Positions 9,236 through 62,640 of a stretch of 64,000 nucleotides of DNA are shown here, in pieces. Within the stretch, counting starts at the first letter, position 1. Each line of letters starts with the position of its first letter. The position numbers and the translations under genes are program-made. The DNA is from an uncultured bacterium (GTDB lineage Bacteria > Patescibacteriota > Minisyncoccia > Phycocordibacterales > UBA9973): contig CAIQAL010000016.1 in assembly GCA_903869825.1 (NCBI GenBank), forward strand, positions 34,269 to 98,268. Direction: 5' to 3'. The notes under the pieces are model-generated. The model saw nothing but the letters and a program-made list of their open reading frames with translations, had not been told where the DNA came from and did not search any database.

Positions 9236-9969
9236 TCGGCAACCAAGTCACTTTCTTCTTCTTTTGAAAATACTTTCTTGTATTTGGCACCCGATTTACC
9301 CTTTACCCGCTTTTCACATTCCGCCCAGGTTTTATCCGAATGCACCTTCCCTTCAACTGCCGAAATATAAGCAAAAGCTACTTTCCCGGCATTTTTTGAT
9401 TTTGCTTTCTTGGCAACTCCCGACACTGTTCCAACAGCATGATTGGTAGGAATTTTTCCAAAAAGTTTTTCGTAATCTTTCAAGTTTCCTCTAAAGAGTA
9501 TTGTGGTGTTGTTCCCGGCAAAACTCGTGGCTATCACATCACACCTTTCATTCAAATGAACTCCGGAGTGTCCTGAAATTTTTTCCCAAAGAACTTCATA
9601 TTTTGTTTTCAAACTAAAATCAAGTTTAAAAAGTTCTTCCCAAAGATCTTTGTTTAAAACCGGCTCTTTCGTTTTCGTCAGCCAATTGTTTTTCTGCCAG
9701 GCATATACCCACACTGTAATGCCGTTCAAGAGGTATGATGAATCAGTGTGAAGAATAATTTTTCTTGCTGTTGATTTTCTTTTCGAAATTTCTTTTAATG
9801 CCTCAAGCGCCGCTGTCATTTCCATCCGATTGTTAGTGGATTCTTTTTCTCTTCCGCCAAGCTCAATAACTTTTTCGTCTGGAAACAATACTACACTTCC
9901 CCAGCCTCCCGGACCTGGATTCCCGAGAGATGAACCGTCAGTATAAATTATGACTTCATTCTTTTTCAT
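9211..9969 (-). CDS. rnhA: Ribonuclease HI with a C-terminal hybrid-binding (Cauli_VI-like) domain
   Basis: N-terminal RNase H fold (IYTDGSSLGNPGPGGWG...MEMTAALEAL...HTDSSY). The C-terminal 50 aa FAYISAVEGKVHSDKTWAECEKRVKGKSGAKYKKVFSKEE match the HBD consensus Y.V..G...GIY..W.EC...V.G..GAKYK.F..KEEA. Confidence 0.8.
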   Translation of the reverse strand: MKKNEVIIYTDGSSLGNPGPGGWGSVVLFPDEKVIELGGREKESTNNRMEMTAALEALKEISKRKSTARKIILHTDSSYLLNGITVWVYAWQKNNWLTKTKEPVLNKDLWEELFKLDFSLKTKYEVLWEKISGHSGVHLNERCDVIATSFAGNNTTILFRGNLKDYEKLFGKIPTNHAVGTVSGVAKKAKSKNAGKVAFAYISAVEGKVHSDKTWAECEKRVKGKSGAKYKKVFSKEEESDLVAEWSLKLLL

Positions 9970-9975
9970 AAGTTC

Positions 9976-11640
9976 TTATATTGTACTTGATATTTCAACA
10001 ATCCTCAAACGAAGTTCTTCCCGTCCTCGAAAGTGGGAGAGATCGAATGTTGCCATTAGATTTATCTTTTTTCCTTCGGCGATTACCGTGTTAAATGACT
10101 CACAAGTTGAGAAAAAAGAAACTGCTTTCGCTTTGTTATTCTTTTCGTCTGAAAAAGTAATCTCGAGATGTTCCTCGGAACCATTCTTCCCAAATTTTTT
10201 TATGTTCCCCACTTTAATTTGCGAGAACAGAAAAACAGGCTTCGGGTTACCGATACCAAACGGCGCCAACTTCTCTACTTCCCGGTAGTTTTTCATATTC
10301 ACAAAAGAAAGGTCGGCTACTTGAATGGAGCAAGCACTACTTCCAATTTTTTCTTTTTGCTTCAGCTTATTATAAAAATCAGAAAGCACTTCTTCAAGTT
10401 TGTGTATTTTTTCATCAAGCACTGTAAAACCTCCCGCTCCATCATGTCCACCGTATTCTTTAAAATGTTCCTTAGCCCCCGCCATTAGTTCAACCACCGA
10501 AATTAACCCATCGGAGCGACATGAACCTTTAATGGAATCATTCTCATCTCTGCCCCAAACAAAAACTGGTTTCTGGTACTCGTCGGCAATTTTTCCCGCT
10601 ACAAGCCCGAGCACTCCGACCCGCCACTTTGGATTACCAATAACAATCACTTCCCCCTGCTCTCTGCCTTCAAATTTTTTCTTCACTTCGCGCATCATTC
10701 CTGCCACAATTAATTTTCTTTCATCGTTTATTTTTGTTAAGTGAGCAGCCAAGGTTCCTGCCTCGACTTCGTCTTTGGTTACCAAAAGTTCATATGCCCG
10801 CATTGGATCATCCATCCGGGAGGCGGCATTTAATCTAGGCACTACCATAAACCCAATGTCGTCTTCAGTGATATATCTTTGGTCAATATTCATTTTGGCC
10901 AAAAGTTTTTGAAGTCCGGGACGAGGAGATTTTCTTAAAACCTTCATTCCAAAACTCGCGATTAATCTGTTCTCTCCCAACAGTGGCACCATATCTGAAA
11001 GTGTTGCGAGTCCTGCCATATCAAGTAACCACTTTTCCCAACCTTCGTTTATCTCAAAAAATTCTCCATATTTTTTTACAAAGGCTTGAGCAAGTTTGAA
11101 AACAACCCCGGCGCCACACAACATTTTCTCCGGATAGTTATCTACTTTGGGATTTAAGATTGCATATGCTCGAGGCAAGACCTCCGGTGGCACGTGATGG
11201 TCAGTAATTATTGTTTCAATTCCATCCACTTCCGCCTGGGCAACTTCCGCCACCGCCGTAATTCCAAGATCAATGGTAATCAATAATTTTATTCCTTTAC
11301 CTGCAAATTCTTTTATTGCATCCATGTTGAGTCCATAGCCTTCCGAATTTCTCATCGGAATGTAGACTTCAAAATTTTTATAACCAACTTTTTCAAATAA
11401 ATCCACCAAAATAACCGCCCCAGGAATCCCATCGCAATCATAATCGGAATAAATAATTATTTTTTCTTCTGCCTCCATTGCTTCATATATCCGAACACAG
11501 ACACGCTCCATGTCCCGCATTAAAAATGGGTCATTCATCTCCAAATCATAATTTGGGTTCAAAAATTTTTCAGCTTCGGCTCCATTTTCAATTCCTCGAT
11601 TTTTCAAAAGTGTTTGAAGTAGTTCGGAGTATTTTTCCAT
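9976..11640 (-). CDS. recJ: Single-stranded-DNA-specific exonuclease RecJ
   Basis: 554 aa with DHH family motifs (IIIYSDYDCDGI, ITDHH) and a DHHA1-like C-terminus. Confidence 0.85.
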   Translation of the reverse strand: MEKYSELLQTLLKNRGIENGAEAEKFLNPNYDLEMNDPFLMRDMERVCVRIYEAMEAEEKIIIYSDYDCDGIPGAVILVDLFEKVGYKNFEVYIPMRNSEGYGLNMDAIKEFAGKGIKLLITIDLGITAVAEVAQAEVDGIETIITDHHVPPEVLPRAYAILNPKVDNYPEKMLCGAGVVFKLAQAFVKKYGEFFEINEGWEKWLLDMAGLATLSDMVPLLGENRLIASFGMKVLRKSPRPGLQKLLAKMNIDQRYITEDDIGFMVVPRLNAASRMDDPMRAYELLVTKDEVEAGTLAAHLTKINDERKLIVAGMMREVKKKFEGREQGEVIVIGNPKWRVGVLGLVAGKIADEYQKPVFVWGRDENDSIKGSCRSDGLISVVELMAGAKEHFKEYGGHDGAGGFTVLDEKIHKLEEVLSDFYNKLKQKEKIGSSACSIQVADLSFVNMKNYREVEKLAPFGIGNPKPVFLFSQIKVGNIKKFGKNGSEEHLEITFSDEKNNKAKAVSFFSTCESFNTVIAEGKKINLMATFDLSHFRGREELRLRIVEISSTI

Positions 11641-11703: not shown

Positions 11704-11746
11704 GAATTTGAAGTCAAAGTTTGTTCTTTGATTCGTTTATCCACAG

Positions 11747-24949: not shown

Positions 24950-24958
24950 TTATCCACA
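24950..24958 (+). promoter_or_regulatory. DnaA box TTATCCACA, preceded by near-box TTATCCCC
   Basis: Exact 9-mer about 45 nt upstream of the putative nusA -35 element. Confidence 0.4.
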
Positions 24959-33614: not shown

Positions 33615-35171
33615 TCATGCATTTTCGGTGCCAGAGCTTACGAGGATTTCGTTTTGCCATTCTCTCTCCTTATGTCGACATTCAAAATCTTTATGGGGCA
33701 GAGGCAAATTCATTCTCTTATAAAATGACAACTCTGCTTGGGTAATTCGAAAGTTTTTCTTGCACTCCTCACAAACAAATATTTCTTTCAAAATATCTTC
33801 GGAAATATCAAAAATACTACTTGGTATCTCTTTTAAGGTTTCCAACCCGTATGTTCCAGTTGTTTTCTCTTGCCAACGAAAGCCTCTTTTCAATGATTCT
33901 TCTTTTGTTAAAGGAAAATAATCGTGAGCTAGAGTTTCATTATAGCAAAAAGGTGCAAGATTAGCAGGAAAATATTGTCCAAAGACACTGTTTTGTTTTA
34001 ACTCTACCTCAATTTTTTCTTTTAGTTTAAAATATTCTTCTTTGGAATATGTCTTATTAAGAATCATACACTCACCTTTTCGAATGGCATTACACCCGAG
34101 CCCATTTACTAGATGATGGCAGTTTTCACAATATTCAACCCCACTACAATAGAAAACGAAAGCGGAATTTTTTAACTGGCTACCTTCCAAAGCTCCCATA
34201 ATGTTATACCCAAACTGGGACTTGTAATAATAATTGTTACAATCCCAACTATCAATTGGACTTTCTGTGTCTGTCATATAAGAACAATTTTTGGCATCAT
34301 AAGTGTCATAGAGTAGTACTCCTTGGTGACAATTGTACAAATAATCTCCAGTGACGTTGTTACATTTGTTTTGAGAAGCGAATTTTCGGATAGTTTTTTC
34401 TTTTAATCGTTCGAATTCTTTTTTAGCTTTTTCAATACTTTCGTAATTTTTTAGAATTTCGGCTTTTTTCTTTTCATATTCTTCTTTCTCGTATTTCACA
34501 TTGAAAATGGCATTGGTTAAGTGCCTGCCATTGGTGCAAAAGATACAATTACTCGAATCACGCATGTTATAGCAAAACAAAAGATCGCTGGAAGATTGGC
34601 ACTGCTCACAGAACATGCATTTGAAACATTTTCGGGAATCTAGACACTCGTAACAAAGTTCCGATTCGTGTAGAAATGCACAGTCGACACAAAATTTATC
34701 CCGTTGCAAAAGTCTGCTATACATACAATCCTCATTGTAGTCAGCCGCAAAAATCATGTAGCAATCCTTGTTTTCGGCTGAGCCATTTGTGTAATCACTT
34801 CGAACATTATTTACAGCAGCCATGCTTTGTCTTGGCACTTTCTTTTGCAATTCTTTGTATTGTTCAAAAAATGTTTTAGTTCGGTCATAATCCACGCCAA
34901 AACTTTTTGGGTCCCAGCCGTCACTCCACCAACAATCATGACAGTAAACTTGGAAATCCGACTCTGGAGAATAAACCGTTATTATGTCTTTTCTACAGAG
35001 ATCACATTGTCTTTTGTAAAGAGTCCGTTCATTTCGAAAAACTAAACGTCTAGCCATCCGACAATCGGAACAGTAAAGTGGAGGAGCAGTTTTCATCTGC
35101 TCGTAAAAAATCATATCCGCGTCCCGGATTTCAAACTCTTGATTACATGTCTTACAAATTTCTTTTGTCAT
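33615..35171 (-). CDS. Cysteine-rich protein of unknown function (paralog B); carries repeated CxxC zinc-ribbon-like modules including C-x2-C-x2-C-x2-C (CFKCMFCEQC)
   Basis: 518 aa. Colinear with ORF 72..1820: it shares the N-terminal ribbon C..CR..RRL, two internal modules ending YSKEEYFKLK, and the C-terminal FRITQAELSFYKRMNLPLP. Confidence 0.6.
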   Translation of the reverse strand: MTKEICKTCNQEFEIRDADMIFYEQMKTAPPLYCSDCRMARRLVFRNERTLYKRQCDLCRKDIITVYSPESDFQVYCHDCWWSDGWDPKSFGVDYDRTKTFFEQYKELQKKVPRQSMAAVNNVRSDYTNGSAENKDCYMIFAADYNEDCMYSRLLQRDKFCVDCAFLHESELCYECLDSRKCFKCMFCEQCQSSSDLLFCYNMRDSSNCIFCTNGRHLTNAIFNVKYEKEEYEKKKAEILKNYESIEKAKKEFERLKEKTIRKFASQNKCNNVTGDYLYNCHQGVLLYDTYDAKNCSYMTDTESPIDSWDCNNYYYKSQFGYNIMGALEGSQLKNSAFVFYCSGVEYCENCHHLVNGLGCNAIRKGECMILNKTYSKEEYFKLKEKIEVELKQNSVFGQYFPANLAPFCYNETLAHDYFPLTKEESLKRGFRWQEKTTGTYGLETLKEIPSSIFDISEDILKEIFVCEECKKNFRITQAELSFYKRMNLPLPHKDFECRHKEREWQNEILVSSGTENA

Positions 35172-35226
35172 TTGTTATTAGAATACAAAGTAATCAACTA
35201 TTTGTCAAAAATTTATTAGTTTCACA

Positions 35227-35754
35227 TTAAACTTCAAGTGTAGTAACTCCTTTAAGGTGCTCGGAGATGAAGTATCCTTGGAATTTTTCAAGGGAGGGAA
35301 GCTCAATTTTTGGCAGAGGAGAAAAAAAGATTTTTGTATTAAAAGGTTCAGTTAAAATTTTATCTTTTATAACACATTTATTAAAATCTCCCGATAGAAT
35401 GAATTTTTCTTTCTTTAATACTGCTTGAATTACTTCTTCAGAGAAAAGTTCAATATTTTTTAGTAATATTATTCGATTATCTAGTCCATGGCTCAAATTA
35501 TCTAAAAACTTTTTTTCATTTTCCTTGGTAAAAAAAGTAGCATCGCCTTTTGTCTCACCAATTTGATTTTTGAATTGTTCCTCAGCCATCGGGTAACCGC
35601 AAAGAACAATGATTTTATTCCCTTCCAAAAACAAATTACCAATGGTTGAAATTGTATAAAAAGAGGCTCCCGCATGATCTTCTCCGTGAATTAGTGCTGG
35701 AAAATCTGCTTGGGTAAATTTAAATTCCTTTTGATTAACAAATATTTTTTTCAT
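35227..35754 (-). CDS. Hypothetical protein (175 aa)
   Basis: ORF co-directional with and downstream of lexA. No recognisable motif. Confidence 0.4.
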   Translation of the reverse strand: MKKIFVNQKEFKFTQADFPALIHGEDHAGASFYTISTIGNLFLEGNKIIVLCGYPMAEEQFKNQIGETKGDATFFTKENEKKFLDNLSHGLDNRIILLKNIELFSEEVIQAVLKKEKFILSGDFNKCVIKDKILTEPFNTKIFFSPLPKIELPSLEKFQGYFISEHLKGVTTLEV

Positions 35755-35894
35755 TCTTAAATAATAACACAGGAGTTTTTATTATTGTTCTAATTTTTTT
35801 TTATTCTTTTCAAAGTCTATTTGATATTCAGGGATGCCGAGAGCAAGCCATATTTAGTAACTTCAGCGTATTCTTTTTTACTAGCTCTATCTAT

Positions 35895-36143
35895 TTAAAA
35901 AATTTTATCTCTATAAATAACAAAATGGATCTGTTCATTTTTATAATCTGCATACCATCCGTGGAGATGATTGCCGTTTTGTGATTTACTAATCTGCTCT
36001 GTTACTTCTGAGGATAGGCTTGGCTCAACCTCAACTTTGTGCAAGGTCCATATTTTTACCCATAGTGTCTGGTATCTGTCCGTTACTTCTTCCACTTTAG
36101 TAGAAATAATTTTTACTCTACTTAATACAGATTTGTCTCCCAA
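35895..36143 (-). CDS. Hypothetical small protein (82 aa)
   Basis: ORF between lexA and the 175-aa ORF on the same strand. ORF-level support only. Confidence 0.25.
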   Translation of the reverse strand: MGDKSVLSRVKIISTKVEEVTDRYQTLWVKIWTLHKVEVEPSLSSEVTEQISKSQNGNHLHGWYADYKNEQIHFVIYRDKIF

Positions 36144-36195
36144 ACTTTCTTCAATTATTTTGCCTTTAAATGCTTCTATGATTTATACTTTTATA

Positions 36196-36762
36196 CTAAT
36201 ATTTTCGGATAACTGCTTTTACTACGGCGGCGATGTTGAAACTGTGCTTCGGGTAAATTGGTTTTAAATTTTTATTGGCCGGTTCGAGCCAGACTTTCGC
36301 TCCAGACTGTCTAAAATATTTCAAAGTAAACTCGCCATCAACTTCGGCAATGACAATTTCTCTGTCTTTTGCCTGATTCGTTTTTTCTACAAGAATGCTA
36401 TCCCCTTTTTCAATATGCGCGTCAATCATCGAATCCCCGTCTACTTCAAGCATATAAGTAAGTGCTTTATTCTTGATTAAAAAATCATCCAGATTAATAG
36501 TGGTATCCGGAATTTCATCCACTTCGGATGGGAAACCAGCTTTGACAAGCCCTAGTTTTGGAATTTCACCAAATGTTTCTGATGGAATAAGTCTTCCTAA
36601 ATGATCTTTTGCCACTAAACCAGCTTCCATTAGTTTTTCAACGATTCGGAAAACAGCATTTTTTGATTTGAAGCTAAAAAGTTTCATCATCTCCGAATAG
36701 GTAGGCATTCTTTTGTTCCCCTGGTAGAAAGATTCAATTTTTGTTTGATAAATATTTTTCAT
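36196..36762 (-). CDS. lexA: LexA repressor
   Basis: N-terminal winged HTH. Ala-Gly cleavage site (LVKAGFP). S24 peptidase Ser (GDSM) and Lys (EFTLKYF). Confidence 0.85.
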   Translation of the reverse strand: MKNIYQTKIESFYQGNKRMPTYSEMMKLFSFKSKNAVFRIVEKLMEAGLVAKDHLGRLIPSETFGEIPKLGLVKAGFPSEVDEIPDTTINLDDFLIKNKALTYMLEVDGDSMIDAHIEKGDSILVEKTNQAKDREIVIAEVDGEFTLKYFRQSGAKVWLEPANKNLKPIYPKHSFNIAAVVKAVIRKY

Positions 36763-36783
36763 TTCCTTAATCCAAAATTACTC

Positions 36784-36975
36784 TTAGAATTGAAATATCG
36801 GAAAAAGTTTCCGAAAAATATTTTGCCTGGTGAGATAGCGCATTCTTCGAAGCATCAGCTTGTGATCTCGAGCTTCTTTTTTGTATTCTTCCCCTCGCAT
36901 AATTTTGATATCAATGGCCTTGTTTACCTTTTGAATCTCTTTTTCTAGCATTTTTAAATATTGTTTTTGTGACAT
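36784..36975 (-). CDS. Small basic coiled-coil protein, first gene of the lexA operon
   Basis: 63-aa ORF between the LexA box and lexA. A GC hairpin (36984-36999) overlaps its putative SD. Confidence 0.35.
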   Translation of the reverse strand: MSQKQYLKMLEKEIQKVNKAIDIKIMRGEEYKKEARDHKLMLRRMRYLTRQNIFRKLFPIFQF

Positions 36976-37048
36976 ATTACTTGTCCCGCAGCGGCGGGAT
37001 TAAATTTTATTTGTTAAAACGACCTATTTATTTATATAAATAGTATAT

Positions 37049-37064
37049 GTGAACGCTCGTTCAC
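37049..37064 (-). promoter_or_regulatory. LexA operator (GAAC-N4-GTTC, Cheo-box type)
   Basis: gtGAACgctcGTTCac is a perfect palindrome. It lies about 75 nt upstream of the small ORF and lexA. Confidence 0.65.
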
Positions 37065-37078
37065 TGTCAACAAACTCC

Positions 37079-37087
37079 TGTGGATAA
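37079..37087 (-). promoter_or_regulatory. DnaA box (TGTGGATAA, reverse complement of TTATCCACA)
   Basis: Exact 9-mer, 15 nt from the LexA box. Confidence 0.4.
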
Positions 37088-37089
37088 CT

Positions 37090-37112
37090 AAAAAAACCCC
37101 AGTGCCTTGGGG
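37090..37112 (-). terminator. Rho-independent terminator for the DksA/TraR-like gene
   Basis: On the minus strand: stem CCCCA / TGGGG followed by T7. Confidence 0.55.
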
Positions 37113-37255
37113 CATTTTAGGTATTTACTTTCGGCCGATACTGGATTACCTCCAGGATATGATCCTTCTATTTCGATTGTGACGATTGTTCCCGAAAGTA
37201 GGTTTACTTGTGCCGAATAAACTCTTTCAAACGCTATTCTGCTTTAATTAAATTA

Positions 37256-37621
37256 CTAATTACCTCCGTTCATGTGCTTTTTGCACGTTCGGGCAGATGG
37301 ATTCGCTTCCATTCTGGCAAGTTCAATATCTTTTTTACAAACTTCACATTTCCCAAAAGACTCTTTTCCGATTCCCTTCAAGGCCAAAAGTACGTGAGAA
37401 AGTTTTGATTCCAAAACTCTTAGCATGGAACTTTTTGCTTCAAAATCTTCAAACCGGTCGGCCATATCATTTTGGTCAGTGGCAACAGAGTTCATTTCTT
37501 CCGGAGTCGCTTCCCACTCACTTGTTTGTGGATTAAATTTCCCCATTCCTTTTAATCCTTCAACTAGGGTATCCCTTTCTTTTTCTAATTTTTCTTTGAT
37601 TTTATTTTTATCTAATGGCAT
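37256..37621 (-). CDS. DksA/TraR-family zinc-finger protein (YteA-like)
   Basis: 121 aa. Coiled-coil N-terminus. C-terminal CEVCKKDIELARMEANPSARTCKKH zinc finger, typical of DksA/TraR. Confidence 0.65.
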   Translation of the reverse strand: MPLDKNKIKEKLEKERDTLVEGLKGMGKFNPQTSEWEATPEEMNSVATDQNDMADRFEDFEAKSSMLRVLESKLSHVLLALKGIGKESFGKCEVCKKDIELARMEANPSARTCKKHMNGGN

Positions 37622-51070: not shown

Positions 51071-52618
51071 TTACTTTTTCACTCCGTGCTTCTTGTGCAA
51101 CTTCATTACTTCCTCTTCTTCCCTTTCTTCTTTTTTTTCTTTGCCTCTTTCTCCCAATGTCCTTAAGGTATTGTCCGGCAAAATGTTCAAGGACTTTGCT
51201 AGTTCGATTAGGTGCTCTTCTTTGTTTTTGCTCGGGTCATCAAGGACTTCTTCCAATAATGCATTTAAAATCCAGCCTATTCTAGGTCCGGGATTTATCC
51301 CAATGTCCTTTATTAAAATATTCCCATCAATCCTCAATTGGGCAACCGAAATCGGATCACGCAGAGCTTCCTCTATCATAGCAAAATATTTACGCAGACG
51401 ATACGGTGCCTCTTTTTTCTTCATTCCAACTCTGTCACATTCTCTCACCTTCATTAAATCCCAAATATTTTCTTTTCCAACTCTTGCAACAATTCTTCGA
51501 ACAGCGGATAAAGTTATCTGTTCCGTGTCGGAAAAAAACATGTGGGTGTGGATAAGTTTTTCCACCATTTCAATATTTTTTTTTGGAAATTTTAATCGCT
51601 CCAAAATTATTTTTGTCATCCGTGCACCGACAACTTCATGACCATAGAAAGTATATTTCTTTTTCCCCGGGGTAACAGAAAGACGTCGGGACCTTGGTTT
51701 CCCGATATCGTGCATTAGGGCTGCGAGCCTTATCTCTAAAGACCAATCCTTGTCAGCCGCATGTTGTAGGGCGTGCAACAAATGATTCCAAACATCAAAG
51801 AGATGAGCCCCTCCTTGCTCGCACCCTATCCCCTCTTCGAGTTCCGGAATAATATTTTTTAATAAATTAAATTTTTGCAGCAACAAAATTCCAGCACTTG
51901 AATTTTCGGACATAATTATTTTTACAAATTCATCACGTATTCTTTCTTCCGATATTTTTTTTATCAACAAAGAATTTTTTAAAATACTTTCTGTGGTTTC
52001 GTGAGAAATTGAAAAACCAAGTTGCACAGAAAATCGTACTGCTCGTAACATCCTTAGCGCGTCTTCCCGAAATCGGTCGTCGGGTTTCCCTACTGTCCTT
52101 AAAACTTTATTTTCAATGTCCTTTAGCCCATCAAACATGTCCGTTAGACTGTACATGTCCTTTATCTTTCTAACTGCCATGGCATTAACGGTAAAATCCC
52201 GTCTCTTAAGGTCATCCTCAAGCTTGTCACTGAATTTGACCTCATCTGGATGCCTAAAATCACTATATTTTTCCTCAGTTCGGTATGGAGTGACTTCAAT
52301 GATGTTATATTCGGGCTGCCCCTGCCTGTCGGCAGGTACGTCGCGAATAACATCACCCGCTGACGTTTCACGAATAACACACACTCCAACCGTTCCAAAG
52401 TTATTTTCATAGACAGTCTTTTCAAAAAGTTTGATGATTTGTTCCGGCCTAGCATTAGTTGTGACATCCCAATCCTTCGGTTCTCTATTAAGAATTAGAT
52501 CCCTGACACAGCCACCGACCAGGTAAGCTTCAAAACCGGCGCGCTCAAGAGTGTCGGTTACATGTGAAACTTCTTTAGGAATTTTGTGCAGAAAATTTTT
52601 GTTGTTAATCGAGTTCAC
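51071..52618 (-). CDS. cca: CCA-adding tRNA nucleotidyltransferase with HD domain
   Basis: 515 aa. PolyA_pol head (YLVGGCVRDLIL...DWDVTT) plus an HD domain (LMHDIGK). The stop is 9 nt from a tRNA gene. Confidence 0.8.
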   Translation of the reverse strand: MNSINNKNFLHKIPKEVSHVTDTLERAGFEAYLVGGCVRDLILNREPKDWDVTTNARPEQIIKLFEKTVYENNFGTVGVCVIRETSAGDVIRDVPADRQGQPEYNIIEVTPYRTEEKYSDFRHPDEVKFSDKLEDDLKRRDFTVNAMAVRKIKDMYSLTDMFDGLKDIENKVLRTVGKPDDRFREDALRMLRAVRFSVQLGFSISHETTESILKNSLLIKKISEERIRDEFVKIIMSENSSAGILLLQKFNLLKNIIPELEEGIGCEQGGAHLFDVWNHLLHALQHAADKDWSLEIRLAALMHDIGKPRSRRLSVTPGKKKYTFYGHEVVGARMTKIILERLKFPKKNIEMVEKLIHTHMFFSDTEQITLSAVRRIVARVGKENIWDLMKVRECDRVGMKKKEAPYRLRKYFAMIEEALRDPISVAQLRIDGNILIKDIGINPGPRIGWILNALLEEVLDDPSKNKEEHLIELAKSLNILPDNTLRTLGERGKEKKEEREEEEVMKLHKKHGVKK

Positions 52619-55903: not shown

Positions 55904-55912
55904 TGTGGATAA
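55904..55912 (-). promoter_or_regulatory. DnaA box (TGTGGATAA)
   Basis: Exact 9-mer in the divergent intergenic region. Confidence 0.35.
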
Positions 55913-60702: not shown

Positions 60703-62640
60703 ATGGAAGACCACTTAAAAGGCTTAAATCCAGCTCAAAAAGAAGCGGCAGAACATATGGATGGTCCAATTTTAATTGTGGCCGGAGCCGGAGCCGGAAA
60801 AACAAAGACAATCACTCACCGAATAGTAAATTTGATAAAAAAAGGGGTAGCGCCGGAGAAAATCCTGGCGGTAACTTTTACCAACAAAGCCGCAAAAGAA
60901 ATGCGGGAGAGAATCGTGGCTGAAATAGAAAAAAATGCCAAAGGTCAAAATACTTTGCCTTTTGTTTCTACTTTTCACTCGCTTGGAGTTTACATAATTA
61001 AAGAAAATGCCCGAATTTTAGGCCTGACAAAATATTTTACAATCTTGGACGAAAGCGATACAACGAATTTGGTAAAAGATGCCATCAAAGAACTTGGACT
61101 TGATCCAAAACAATATGACCCAAGAAGAATAAAAAATATTATCAGCCGAGAAAAAGGAAAATTCACTAACTTGTCGGATTACGAGGAAAAAGAATCAAGC
61201 GCGCTTGGAAGAATCGTTGGGGCTGTGTGGAATATTTATGAAAAGAAAAAAAGCAAAGAAAACTCACTCGACTTTGATGACTTACTTTTAAAAGCGGTAA
61301 AACTTTTGAAAGAAAATGAAATGATAAGAAAAATTTACCAGGAACGCTGGGAGTATATTCACATCGATGAGTATCAGGATACAAACGAAGTACAATATCT
61401 AATGACCCGGATTCTTTCGGAAAAGAATAAAAACATCTGCGTAGTAGGGGATGCGGACCAAAACATTTACTCCTGGCGCGGAGCAAACTTGAAAAACATT
61501 TTGTCTTTCGAAAAAGATTATCCAAACGCAAAAATAATTTTACTGGAAGAAAACTATCGATCGACCAAAAACATTTTGGAAGCGGCAAACGAAATAATTA
61601 AAAAAAATATTTACCGCCCGGACAAAAACTTATTTACCAAAAATGAAACCGGGGAAAAAATTTCTCTCTACGAAGCCATCGATGAAGGAGACGAAGCCGA
61701 ACACGTCGCAACAAAAATTTTAACCCTGCTCGACAAAGAATCGACTACCTTCCCCGAAGTCGCAGTTCTTTACCGTGCAAACTTTCAGTCGCGCGCCATG
61801 GAAGAAGCGATGCTCAGGTACAATATTCCGTATCAAGTGTTAGGAGTAAAATTTTTTGAAAGGAAAGAAATCAAAGATACCCTCGCTTACTTGCGAGCGG
61901 CACTGAACCCAGAAAGTCTTTCGGATATAAAAAGAATTATCAATTTCCCGGCACGCGGAATCGGCAAAACAACTTTGCTAAAACTTTTTTCTGGAGAGAA
62001 AGAAAGTTTGCCGATAAAAATGAAACTAAAAATCGATAATTTTTATGCCGCGCTCGGAGAAATAAGCGAAAAAATTAAAACAGAAAAAGCATCAGAGGTG
62101 GTAAAGTTTACCGTAAAGAAATCTGGCATTGAACTTGAGTTGCAATCGGGAGTGGAGGAAGACCTAGAAAGGCTTGAAAACATTAAAGAATTAGCGACCT
62201 TAGCTGTTAAGTACGACAACCTAAAAGAGGGCGGTGGAATAGAAAAACTTTTGGAAGATGCCTCACTTGCAAGCGACCAAGATTCGATAATGCATCGAGA
62301 AGAAAAAAAAGAAAATAAAAACGCAATTAAACTAATGACTGTTCACGCTTCAAAGGGTCTCGAATTCGAATATGTTTTTATTACCGGGCTCGAAGACGGT
62401 CTCTTCCCACATCAAAAACAAGGAGAGAGGGAAACAGCCGAAGACCGGGAAGAAGAACGCAGACTATTTTACGTAGCGCTAACTAGAGCAAAGAGAAAAT
62501 TATTTCTATCATATGCTGACTTCCGAACAATTTTCGGATCTCGCCAGATAAATGCTCCTTCGGAATTTTTGGCCGACATCCCGAAAGATTTAATCGAGAA
62601 AGGGGATGAAGACCCTGGAATCAAAACCATCTATATATGA
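60703..62640 (+). CDS. uvrD: ATP-dependent DNA helicase, UvrD/PcrA/Rep family
   Basis: 645 aa. Begins NPAQKEAAEH...LIVAGAGAGKTKTITHR. Has the DEYQDTN motif and helicase motifs through to the C-terminal TVHASKGLEF. Confidence 0.85.
   Translation: MEDHLKGLNPAQKEAAEHMDGPILIVAGAGAGKTKTITHRIVNLIKKGVAPEKILAVTFTNKAAKEMRERIVAEIEKNAKGQNTLPFVSTFHSLGVYIIKENARILGLTKYFTILDESDTTNLVKDAIKELGLDPKQYDPRRIKNIISREKGKFTNLSDYEEKESSALGRIVGAVWNIYEKKKSKENSLDFDDLLLKAVKLLKENEMIRKIYQERWEYIHIDEYQDTNEVQYLMTRILSEKNKNICVVGDADQNIYSWRGANLKNILSFEKDYPNAKIILLEENYRSTKNILEAANEIIKKNIYRPDKNLFTKNETGEKISLYEAIDEGDEAEHVATKILTLLDKESTTFPEVAVLYRANFQSRAMEEAMLRYNIPYQVLGVKFFERKEIKDTLAYLRAALNPESLSDIKRIINFPARGIGKTTLLKLFSGEKESLPIKMKLKIDNFYAALGEISEKIKTEKASEVVKFTVKKSGIELELQSGVEEDLERLENIKELATLAVKYDNLKEGGGIEKLLEDASLASDQDSIMHREEKKENKNAIKLMTVHASKGLEFEYVFITGLEDGLFPHQKQGERETAEDREEERRLFYVALTRAKRKLFLSYADFRTIFGSRQINAPSEFLADIPKDLIEKGDEDPGIKTIYI

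Follow-up and report, generated by a model that had tools for sequence, protein, structure and literature searches.

The lexA gene of an uncultured member of the Patescibacteria probably belongs to a two-gene operon, orf63-lexA, that is repressed by its own LexA product and modulated by DnaA, with the open reading frames (ORFs) downstream of lexA lying outside this regulatory module. The operon is found on the minus strand of a 64 kb stretch (the window; 64,000 nt, G+C 38%) of contig CAIQAL010000016.1, the nearest relatives of which are metagenome-assembled genomes labelled Candidatus Nomurabacteria, Paceibacterota or Patescibacteria. An original prediction for this DNA had proposed a larger SOS array, consisting of a perfect Cheo-type LexA operator with a DnaA box close by, a small upstream ORF with a GC hairpin in front of it, lexA, and two co-directional ORFs of 82 and 175 aa that might be novel SOS effectors. 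The operator, the DnaA box and the hairpin are all present, and the small ORF and lexA are both real genes that form an SOS regulatory module under the operator. The two downstream ORFs fared differently, as described below.

The best promoter match of the region (11 of 12 positions in a promoter scan) consists of a −35 hexamer, TTGACA (37065..37070), and a −10 hexamer, TATACT (37042..37047), both on the minus strand and separated by 17 bp. The LexA operator fills this spacer. It is a perfect 16 bp palindrome (GTGAACGCTCGTTCAC, 37049..37064) of the form GTGAACG-NN-CGTTCAC with a Cheo-type GAAC-N4-GTTC core, and in the minus-strand layout it reads GTGAACGAGCGTTCAC between TTGACA and TATACT. An exact consensus DnaA box (TTATCCACA, 37079..37087, minus strand) lies 8 bp upstream of the −35 hexamer and 14 nt from the operator. 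Further upstream, an intrinsic terminator detected by a terminator scan (a GC hairpin followed by seven T, 37090..37113, minus strand) ends the preceding unit of a DksA-like gene and a comM relic, and insulates the lexA promoter. The core motif by itself occurs at chance level, with one GAAC-N4-GTTC found in the 64 kb against 0.86 expected, and at least one in 58 of 100 shuffled sequences. The LexA box is therefore considered genuine because of its position and its conservation, not because of motif counts.

Conservation was assessed in two sets of loci. A scan of one genome per species gave 238 LexA relatives, and the best 80 loci (71–84% identity) were kept as the close set. The distant set (28 loci) came from a metagenome scan with one distant orf63 homologue as the query, and its LexA proteins are mostly 39–60% identical to that of the window, with three nearer relatives at 74–76%. 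The LexA box is kept in 79 of the 80 close loci, TTGACA in 78 and TATACT in 75. The operator has the form GTGAACG(CT or AG)CGTTCAC in 74 of them, with one-base variants in six, and the promoter spacer is 17 bp in 58 and 18 bp in 22. When the 80 loci were aligned on the LexA box, the promoter was almost invariant while the sequence further upstream differed. A single close locus, L009, lacks the LexA and DnaA boxes, its promoter having been lost to an inserted gene. The end of this other gene (L009, 4560–4790) lies 38 nt before orf63, and by eye its C-terminus was read as GIY-YIG-like. Among the distant loci, several of which are leaderless, a GAAC-N4-GTTC box occupies the same promoter position in 26 of 28.

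The early transcribed region contains a short conserved motif, (T)A(A/G)GTC(G/A), which was present within the first 40 nt past the −10 hexamer in 60 of 79 loci, mostly 6–14 nt after it, compared with a mean of 9.5 and a maximum of 17 loci in shuffled controls. The copy in the window is GGTCG (37020..37024, minus strand). The motif could mark the transcription start or represent an additional binding site.

The DnaA box is likewise conserved. TTATCCACA is exact in 76 of the 80 close loci and differs by one base in the other four; it is always on the coding strand, 7–10 bp (mode 9) upstream of the −35 hexamer, and is retained while its flanks and the gene upstream vary. An exact copy is also found in 19 of the 28 distant loci, and other loci of this set carry variants with one or two mismatches at this place, including CTATCCACA, ATTCCACA, TTTTCCACA and TTATCCCCA. 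In the related sequence scanned for boxes (737 kb of lexA-flanking loci) there were 87 copies of TTATCCACA, 75 at the lexA promoter position and 12 elsewhere, close to the nine or so expected from composition. Ten of these 12 off-site copies are intergenic, and they include sites upstream of dnaA and ruvC. In locus L087, dnaA is preceded at 75 nt by TTATCCACA and a second near-consensus box, TTATCAACA, at a distance of only about 4 kb from lexA, and the DnaA encoded by this one genome is canonical, with a Bac_DnaA_C domain. Copies of TTATCCACA in this locus were noted at 553–561 and 9736–9744, one upstream of dnaA and another upstream of ruvC.

The window itself contains five copies of TTATCCACA against 0.59 expected, a number reached by none of 100 shuffled sequences. 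Apart from that at the lexA promoter, they are located in the divergent intergenic region between recJ and a 116-aa gene (11737–11745, plus strand), upstream of nusA in tandem with TTATCCCCT (24950–24958, plus strand), within the gene for the CCA-adding enzyme (51547–51555, minus strand), and 6 nt upstream of a TTGACT preceding a LysM/M23 peptidase gene (55904–55912, minus strand). This distribution suggests a single-box DnaA transcriptional regulon. A chance match was considered for the box at lexA and rejected, given the positional conservation (76/80) and the excess in the window. The box is evidently under selection at the lexA promoter, and the simplest reading would be that it is a functional DnaA site, with DnaA acting as a transcription factor in these organisms. 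A fixed DnaA box at the promoter of the master regulator itself appears to be undescribed: a literature search, which did not extend to a 2017 study of the Patescibacteria SOS network, found no paper on a DnaA box at a lexA promoter, and none pairing TTATCCACA with the Candidate Phyla Radiation (CPR).

The lexA gene (36196..36762, minus strand) encodes a self-cleaving repressor of 188 aa with a predicted cleavage site at Ala75-Gly76 and the catalytic residues Ser111 and Lys148. The protein matches Peptidase_S24 (PF00717) at 1.5e-25 and aligns with TIGR00498 over residues 9–187, scoring 110.7 bits against a cut-off of 110.95. Its N-terminal domain is matched weakly by the Pfam LexA_DNA_bind model (E = 0.24), and the alignment to the Thermotoga maritima LexA structure (3K2Z) begins at residue 9. 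The near-miss with TIGR00498 and the weak DNA-binding domain would fit a CI-like repressor of a mobile element or prophage, with the whole array being part of an integrated element, as would the region past lexA, a variable slot in which DNA methyltransferases and other accessory genes are often found. However, the protein aligns over its full length with the LexA structures of T. maritima and Escherichia coli (1JHH) with the AG, Ser and Lys residues in register, its motifs VK-A75-G76-FP, GDS(111)M and TLK(148) corresponding to the cleavage site and catalytic residues of both. Its promoter carries a palindromic, Cheo-type operator, its partner proteins have no match in PHROG (phage families), and in about 80 species orf63-lexA sits within a conserved chromosomal backbone (DksA-like, ComM, HU, RNase Y). 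A CI-like repressor is thus highly improbable, and the identification of the S24 protein as a genuine LexA, resting on these alignments and its operator, appears sound.

The first gene of the operon, orf63 (36784..36975, minus strand), encodes a basic, 63-aa helical-hairpin protein. In 81 of 82 lexA-bearing close loci, lexA is immediately preceded by an orf63 homologue, and orf63 is followed by lexA in all 25 distant loci that had enough downstream sequence to be counted. The family has at least 240 close relatives and forms 313 clusters at 50% identity, with lengths of 60–100 aa and no annotated member. Among 30 sequences, 17 residues are invariant. The first 45 residues are strongly conserved (MSxxQYLKxxEKEIQKxNxxIDxKIxRGExYxKEARDHKLLL), and the last 10–15 are variable, basic, and aromatic or hydrophobic. 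Even at 30–40% identity, N18, I21, D22 and H38 are invariant, and G28 and Y31 are kept in at least 90% of sequences. The AlphaFold (AF2) model shows two antiparallel helices with a mean predicted local distance difference test score (pLDDT) of 88. The distance from the orf63 stop codon to the lexA start is mostly −1 to +24 nt in relatives, so that the genes overlap or lie close together; the window has a gap of 21 nt, which contains AAGGA. The overlap seen in many relatives suggests that translation of the two genes is coupled.

A short ORF with no known family, immediately ahead of lexA and often overlapping its start, might be a leader ORF whose translation merely controls lexA expression and whose product has no function of its own. 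The pattern of conservation makes this quite unlikely. Constraint acts at the protein level and not at the nucleotide level, as seen in the 17 invariant residues and in the retention of the six signature positions (N18, I21, D22, G28, Y31 and H38) in distant homologues, and the family keeps a stable length across its 313 clusters and gives a confident two-helix model. On these grounds orf63 is predicted to be a real protein made together with LexA. It has no match in Pfam, NCBIfam, PHROG or PADLOC, and fold searches returned generic helical hairpins only (E > 1), with no meaningful structural neighbour. A function linked to LexA or RecA is favoured because the linkage to lexA is invariant. The protein is unlikely to be a membrane-anchored inhibitor of division like YneA or SosA, because no LysM or other Pfam domain was found in it and its hydrophobic/basic tail of 10–15 residues is too short to span a membrane. 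A small partner protein that always accompanies LexA also appears to be undescribed.

The 66 nt 5′ leader of orf63 (36976–37041, minus strand) contains the GC-rich hairpin of the original prediction (36984..36999, minus strand; 6 pairs, RNAfold −10.1 kcal/mol), the 3′ arm of which holds the only Shine-Dalgarno-like purines (GGGA) ahead of the orf63 start. Leaders in relatives vary from 6 to 144 nt. The short ones have neither a hairpin nor a Shine-Dalgarno sequence, and loci L057 and L064 are leaderless (6 nt). In the longer leaders there are GC-rich hairpins or palindromic inserts of at least four unrelated kinds, which recur across species and resemble small mobile palindromic elements. The hairpin type of the window is found in about eight loci, where the 3′ arm ends in GGGA or GAGA about 8 nt before the ATG, with weak covariation. 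A role as a conserved riboregulator was rejected, since relatives have other hairpins or none, some are leaderless and covariation is weak. The hairpin may have a local effect on translation, as a lineage-specific insert and not as a conserved part of the module.

The genes downstream of lexA present a different picture. The 82-aa ORF (35895–36143) and the 175-aa ORF exist as described, but the former is only part of what was once a gene of about 130 codons, now a pseudogene spanning 35782..36179 (minus strand). The reading frame is open upstream of its TTG, reading IIEAFKGK, and past its stop codon homology continues in another frame. The reconstructed protein of about 133 aa is 62–66% identical to intact genes of 129–132 aa in loci L033 and L078, and DNA alignment with these copies locates three lesions: a start codon changed from ATG to ATA, an in-frame AAA to TAA change, and a 1 bp deletion. 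The original prediction had found no recognisable motifs in either ORF. This holds for the intact 130-aa homologue, which has no match in Pfam, NCBIfam, PHROG or PADLOC, but not for the 175-aa protein, which has a degenerate P-loop and a confidently modelled RecA/FtsK-like fold.

The gene for this protein, orf175 (35227..35754, minus strand), encodes a stand-alone RecA/FtsK-like P-loop domain with atypical motifs, and is best described as a passenger gene. Its family comprises at least 143 stand-alone members of about 175–200 aa, and every named one is from Patescibacteria. The AF2 model has a pLDDT of 93.7, and Foldseek matches it (template modelling score, TM, 0.5–0.73) to EccC/EssC, RecA, the B204 packaging ATPase, KaiC and viral FtsK-like proteins. 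The P-loop following strand 1 reads G24-x4-G29-A-S31 (GxxxxGAS) and lacks the Walker A lysine, and the family alignment shows an invariant K99-N100 at the usual position of the Walker B acid. No match was found in Pfam, NCBIfam, PHROG or PADLOC, and no PDB sequence scored better than E = 0.78 in a search with the family profile. The possibility of a defence or phage gene was considered and rejected, as PADLOC and PHROG were empty and the viral fold matches are to generic FtsK-like nucleoside triphosphatases.

In the original prediction, these two ORFs were co-transcribed with lexA and might encode new effectors induced by damage, for example an inhibitor of cell division or an accessory factor of an error-prone polymerase; this would make a four-gene SOS operon. 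All four genes point in the same direction, and the stretch from lexA to orf175 contains no terminator-like site, as had been reported. The fold of orf175, RecA-like and without the Walker A lysine, recalls SulA and ImuA, homologues of orf175 occur within 1 kb of lexA in loci L002 and L007, and repair-type neighbours (Exo/endo-phosphatase, NUDIX, GIY-YIG) are seen in some loci. Synteny nevertheless largely refutes the four-gene operon. Of 80 species-level relatives, 78 have neither downstream gene at a distance of 5 kb or less from lexA, and orf175 is near lexA only in the window, L002 and L007. In L007 the order is lexA, a 161-aa gene, orf175. In L002, orf175 is upstream of NUDIX and lexA and is fused to an Exo/endo-phosphatase gene, in a unit separate from that of lexA. 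Elsewhere in the Patescibacteria the neighbours of orf175 differ in every lineage examined and its contexts are unrelated to one another. None of ten orf175 loci checked has a LexA box upstream, and most of these homologues carry TATAAT or TATACT 6–9 nt before the start codon. The window has an extended −10-like element (TGTTATTAT, 35761..35769, minus strand) 6 nt before the orf175 ATG, a candidate promoter of its own that would give a near-leaderless mRNA. Sequence searches gave no match to Pfam SulA or any other family, and the top fold matches include neither SulA nor ImuA. As the 82-aa ORF is a pseudogene, both genes are absent from the lexA neighbourhood in 78 of 80 relatives, and orf175 homologues have unrelated contexts, no LexA box and mostly a −10 element of their own, a role of the two ORFs as co-transcribed SOS effectors is unlikely.

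Evidence for a wider LexA regulon was also sought. No second LexA box was found in the 64 kb window, even with three mismatches allowed, and the recJ gene (9976–11640, minus strand) and the UvrD/PcrA-like helicase gene (60703–62640, plus strand) of the window have no LexA-box-like sequence, which hints at a very small LexA regulon. The 737 kb of lexA flanks contained three further LexA boxes against about nine expected, all intragenic and none intergenic. As far as the window and the flanks reach, extra LexA boxes are thus wanting and the ORFs flanking lexA are unconserved, the combination that had been named in advance as speaking against the effector proposal.

A coherent mechanism can be proposed from these observations. 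The orf63 and lexA genes would be transcribed from one strong sigma-70-type promoter, and, judging from the geometry of the site and from LexA elsewhere, a LexA dimer bound to the spacer palindrome would block RNA polymerase, making the operon self-repressing. Upon DNA damage, activated RecA would trigger self-cleavage of LexA at Ala75-Gly76 via Ser111/Lys148, the promoter would open, and orf63 protein and new LexA would be made. DnaA bound to the box 7–10 bp upstream of the −35 hexamer would presumably modulate the promoter, with either sign conceivable, so that the amount of the SOS master regulator would also be tied to replication status. The orf63 protein would most likely serve the SOS response in connection with LexA, whether by tuning LexA or RecA as their partner or by acting as an effector induced by damage. 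The downstream region comprises a decayed pseudogene and a P-loop-fold protein that is widespread in the CPR and would be expressed from its own promoter, both within a variable slot.

Several points weigh against this interpretation. Binding by LexA and DnaA, the transcription start and the co-transcription of orf63 with lexA are deduced from sequence, and TTATCCACA could be bound by some other factor. Homology and fold searches lend no support to any particular function of orf63. A simple scan detected nothing resembling a terminator in the interval from lexA to the downstream ORFs, and in this genome the pseudogene and orf175 may receive damage-induced read-through. A weak terminator-like hairpin (7 pairs with a T-rich tail; 36798–36814, minus strand), which falls where orf63 encodes its variable C-terminus, could reduce transcription continuing into lexA. 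With these points taken into account, the self-repressed, DnaA-modulated orf63-lexA operon remains the probable arrangement. A broader proposal is more tentative: that throughout the Patescibacteria DnaA and LexA jointly set the expression of this bicistron, that its first product, a helical hairpin of 60–70 aa, is an obligate partner of LexA/RecA or the main SOS effector in such minimal genomes, and that the regulon amounts to little more than this operon alone in the 64 kb. This is possible, though doubtful in its full extent.

On the minus strand, the genes before the promoter are those for PNPase, a 286-aa protein and a DksA/TraR-like protein (37256–37621), followed by the terminator. Between the last of these and the terminator is a relic of comM, the gene for a Mg-chelatase-like ATPase (37120..37237, minus strand), of which the first 24 and last 16 codons of about 520 are left. 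In a tblastn comparison of the L010 ComM with the window, residues 1–24 correspond to 37237–37166 and residues 508–523 to 37167–37120. Together with the nearby pseudogene, the relic points to local gene decay. After orf175 come a second good promoter (35180–35208) and a 518-aa zinc-finger-rich gene, then the convergent HU gene, RNase Y and ClpP. The commonest order, in about 80 species, is the 286-aa gene, DksA-like, ComM, orf63-lexA, convergent HU and RNase Y, and HU is the most frequent downstream neighbour of lexA among the 80 species-level relatives.

The slot between lexA and HU contains inserts that vary by lineage: N4/N6 and C5 DNA methyltransferases, a zinc-finger-rich protein of 518–588 aa, the 130-aa family and others. 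The pseudogene, orf175 and the 518-aa gene of the window all fall within it. Methyltransferases (N4/N6 with an SPPY motif; C5) and partner genes were observed between lexA and HU in, for example, L008, L014 and L019, and also in L025, L035, L044, L050, L053, L054, L067 and L084–L086. Since methyltransferases with partner genes are so often present, the slot represents a hotspot for restriction-modification cassettes. The 518–588-aa protein, with CxxC zinc-finger-like repeats, was seen near the lexA-HU junction in six species (window 33615–35171, minus strand; L012, L013, L021, L031 and L051), and gave only weak treble-clef matches and a weak PADLOC match to NsnC (E = 8e-4).

The CPR/Patescibacteria are uncultured bacteria with minimal genomes, and their gene regulation is almost unstudied by experiment. 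A DnaA box, −35 hexamer, operator and −10 hexamer maintained nearly base-for-base in about 100 species is, for this group, a rare regulatory element that lends itself to direct testing. The arrangement suggests that the level of the damage repressor is coupled to replication status, and that a small protein always accompanies LexA. The analysis also removes a false lead, as one of the two ORFs put forward as SOS effectors is a pseudogene and the other an unrelated passenger.

In kind, orf63-lexA is an autoregulated lexA operon of a known type. Gram-positive-type LexA autoregulation via a Cheo box is represented by Bacillus subtilis dinR/lexA, with the consensus GAAC-N4-GTTC. Both systems have an S24 repressor with an AG cleavage site and a Ser/Lys dyad, and a GAAC-N4-GTTC palindrome overlapping its own promoter. 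Here, in contrast, the operator is extended to a 16 bp palindrome positioned precisely within the spacer, lexA comes second in the operon after a conserved small ORF, the promoter includes a DnaA box, and the N-terminal domain of LexA is divergent (as seen in the LexA_DNA_bind score). The SOS network of the Patescibacteria is reportedly the subject of a comparative genomics study of the LexA regulon by Sanchez-Osuna, Barbe and Erill (Environ Microbiol, 2017), which would concern the same phylum and the same regulator.

Small SOS division inhibitors encoded beside lexA are well known (YneA, SosA, SidA, ChiZ and DivS); they usually form separate or divergent units and are mostly membrane-anchored or carry LysM. 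Like them, orf63 is small, lineage-restricted, adjacent to lexA and under a LexA box. It differs in being part of the lexA transcript, ahead of lexA, and in having no full-length transmembrane segment or LysM domain. Another small protein connected with LexA is gp7 of phage GIL01, a helical protein of about 50 aa that binds LexA and stabilises repression. The orf63 protein is likewise very small, all-helical and tied to LexA, but the two share no sequence or fold match, and gp7 is encoded by a phage, while orf63 is a chromosomal gene conserved together with lexA.

SulA and ImuA are SOS proteins of the RecA class that lack the lysine. The likeness of orf175 to them, a RecA-like fold without the Walker A lysine, is at the level of fold class only. 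Unlike them, it has no LexA box (ten loci), no conserved link to lexA, imuB/dnaE2 or ftsZ, and no sequence-family match (Pfam, NCBIfam, PADLOC, PDB sequences). With the RecA/FtsK/KaiC class, orf175 shares the strand-loop-helix P-loop core and the overall fold of the ASCE (additional strand, catalytic glutamate) group, but the matches are weak (TM 0.5–0.7), the Walker A motif is GxxxxGAS, and Lys-Asn replaces the Walker B acid.

The closest parallel to the promoter is the dual control described in E. coli, where DnaA and LexA co-repress uvrB, recN and dinJ (Wurihan et al. 2018, PMC6015884; reviewed in PMC8203912). In both cases DnaA and LexA boxes occur in one promoter region, with DnaA modulating the SOS response, as would be predicted here. 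In the Patescibacteria, by contrast, lexA itself has the DnaA box in its promoter, a case not listed in the review (PMC8203912). There is a single consensus box, which keeps a set distance to the −35 hexamer downstream of it and does not overlap the LexA box. It is also conserved over a phylum-level radiation.

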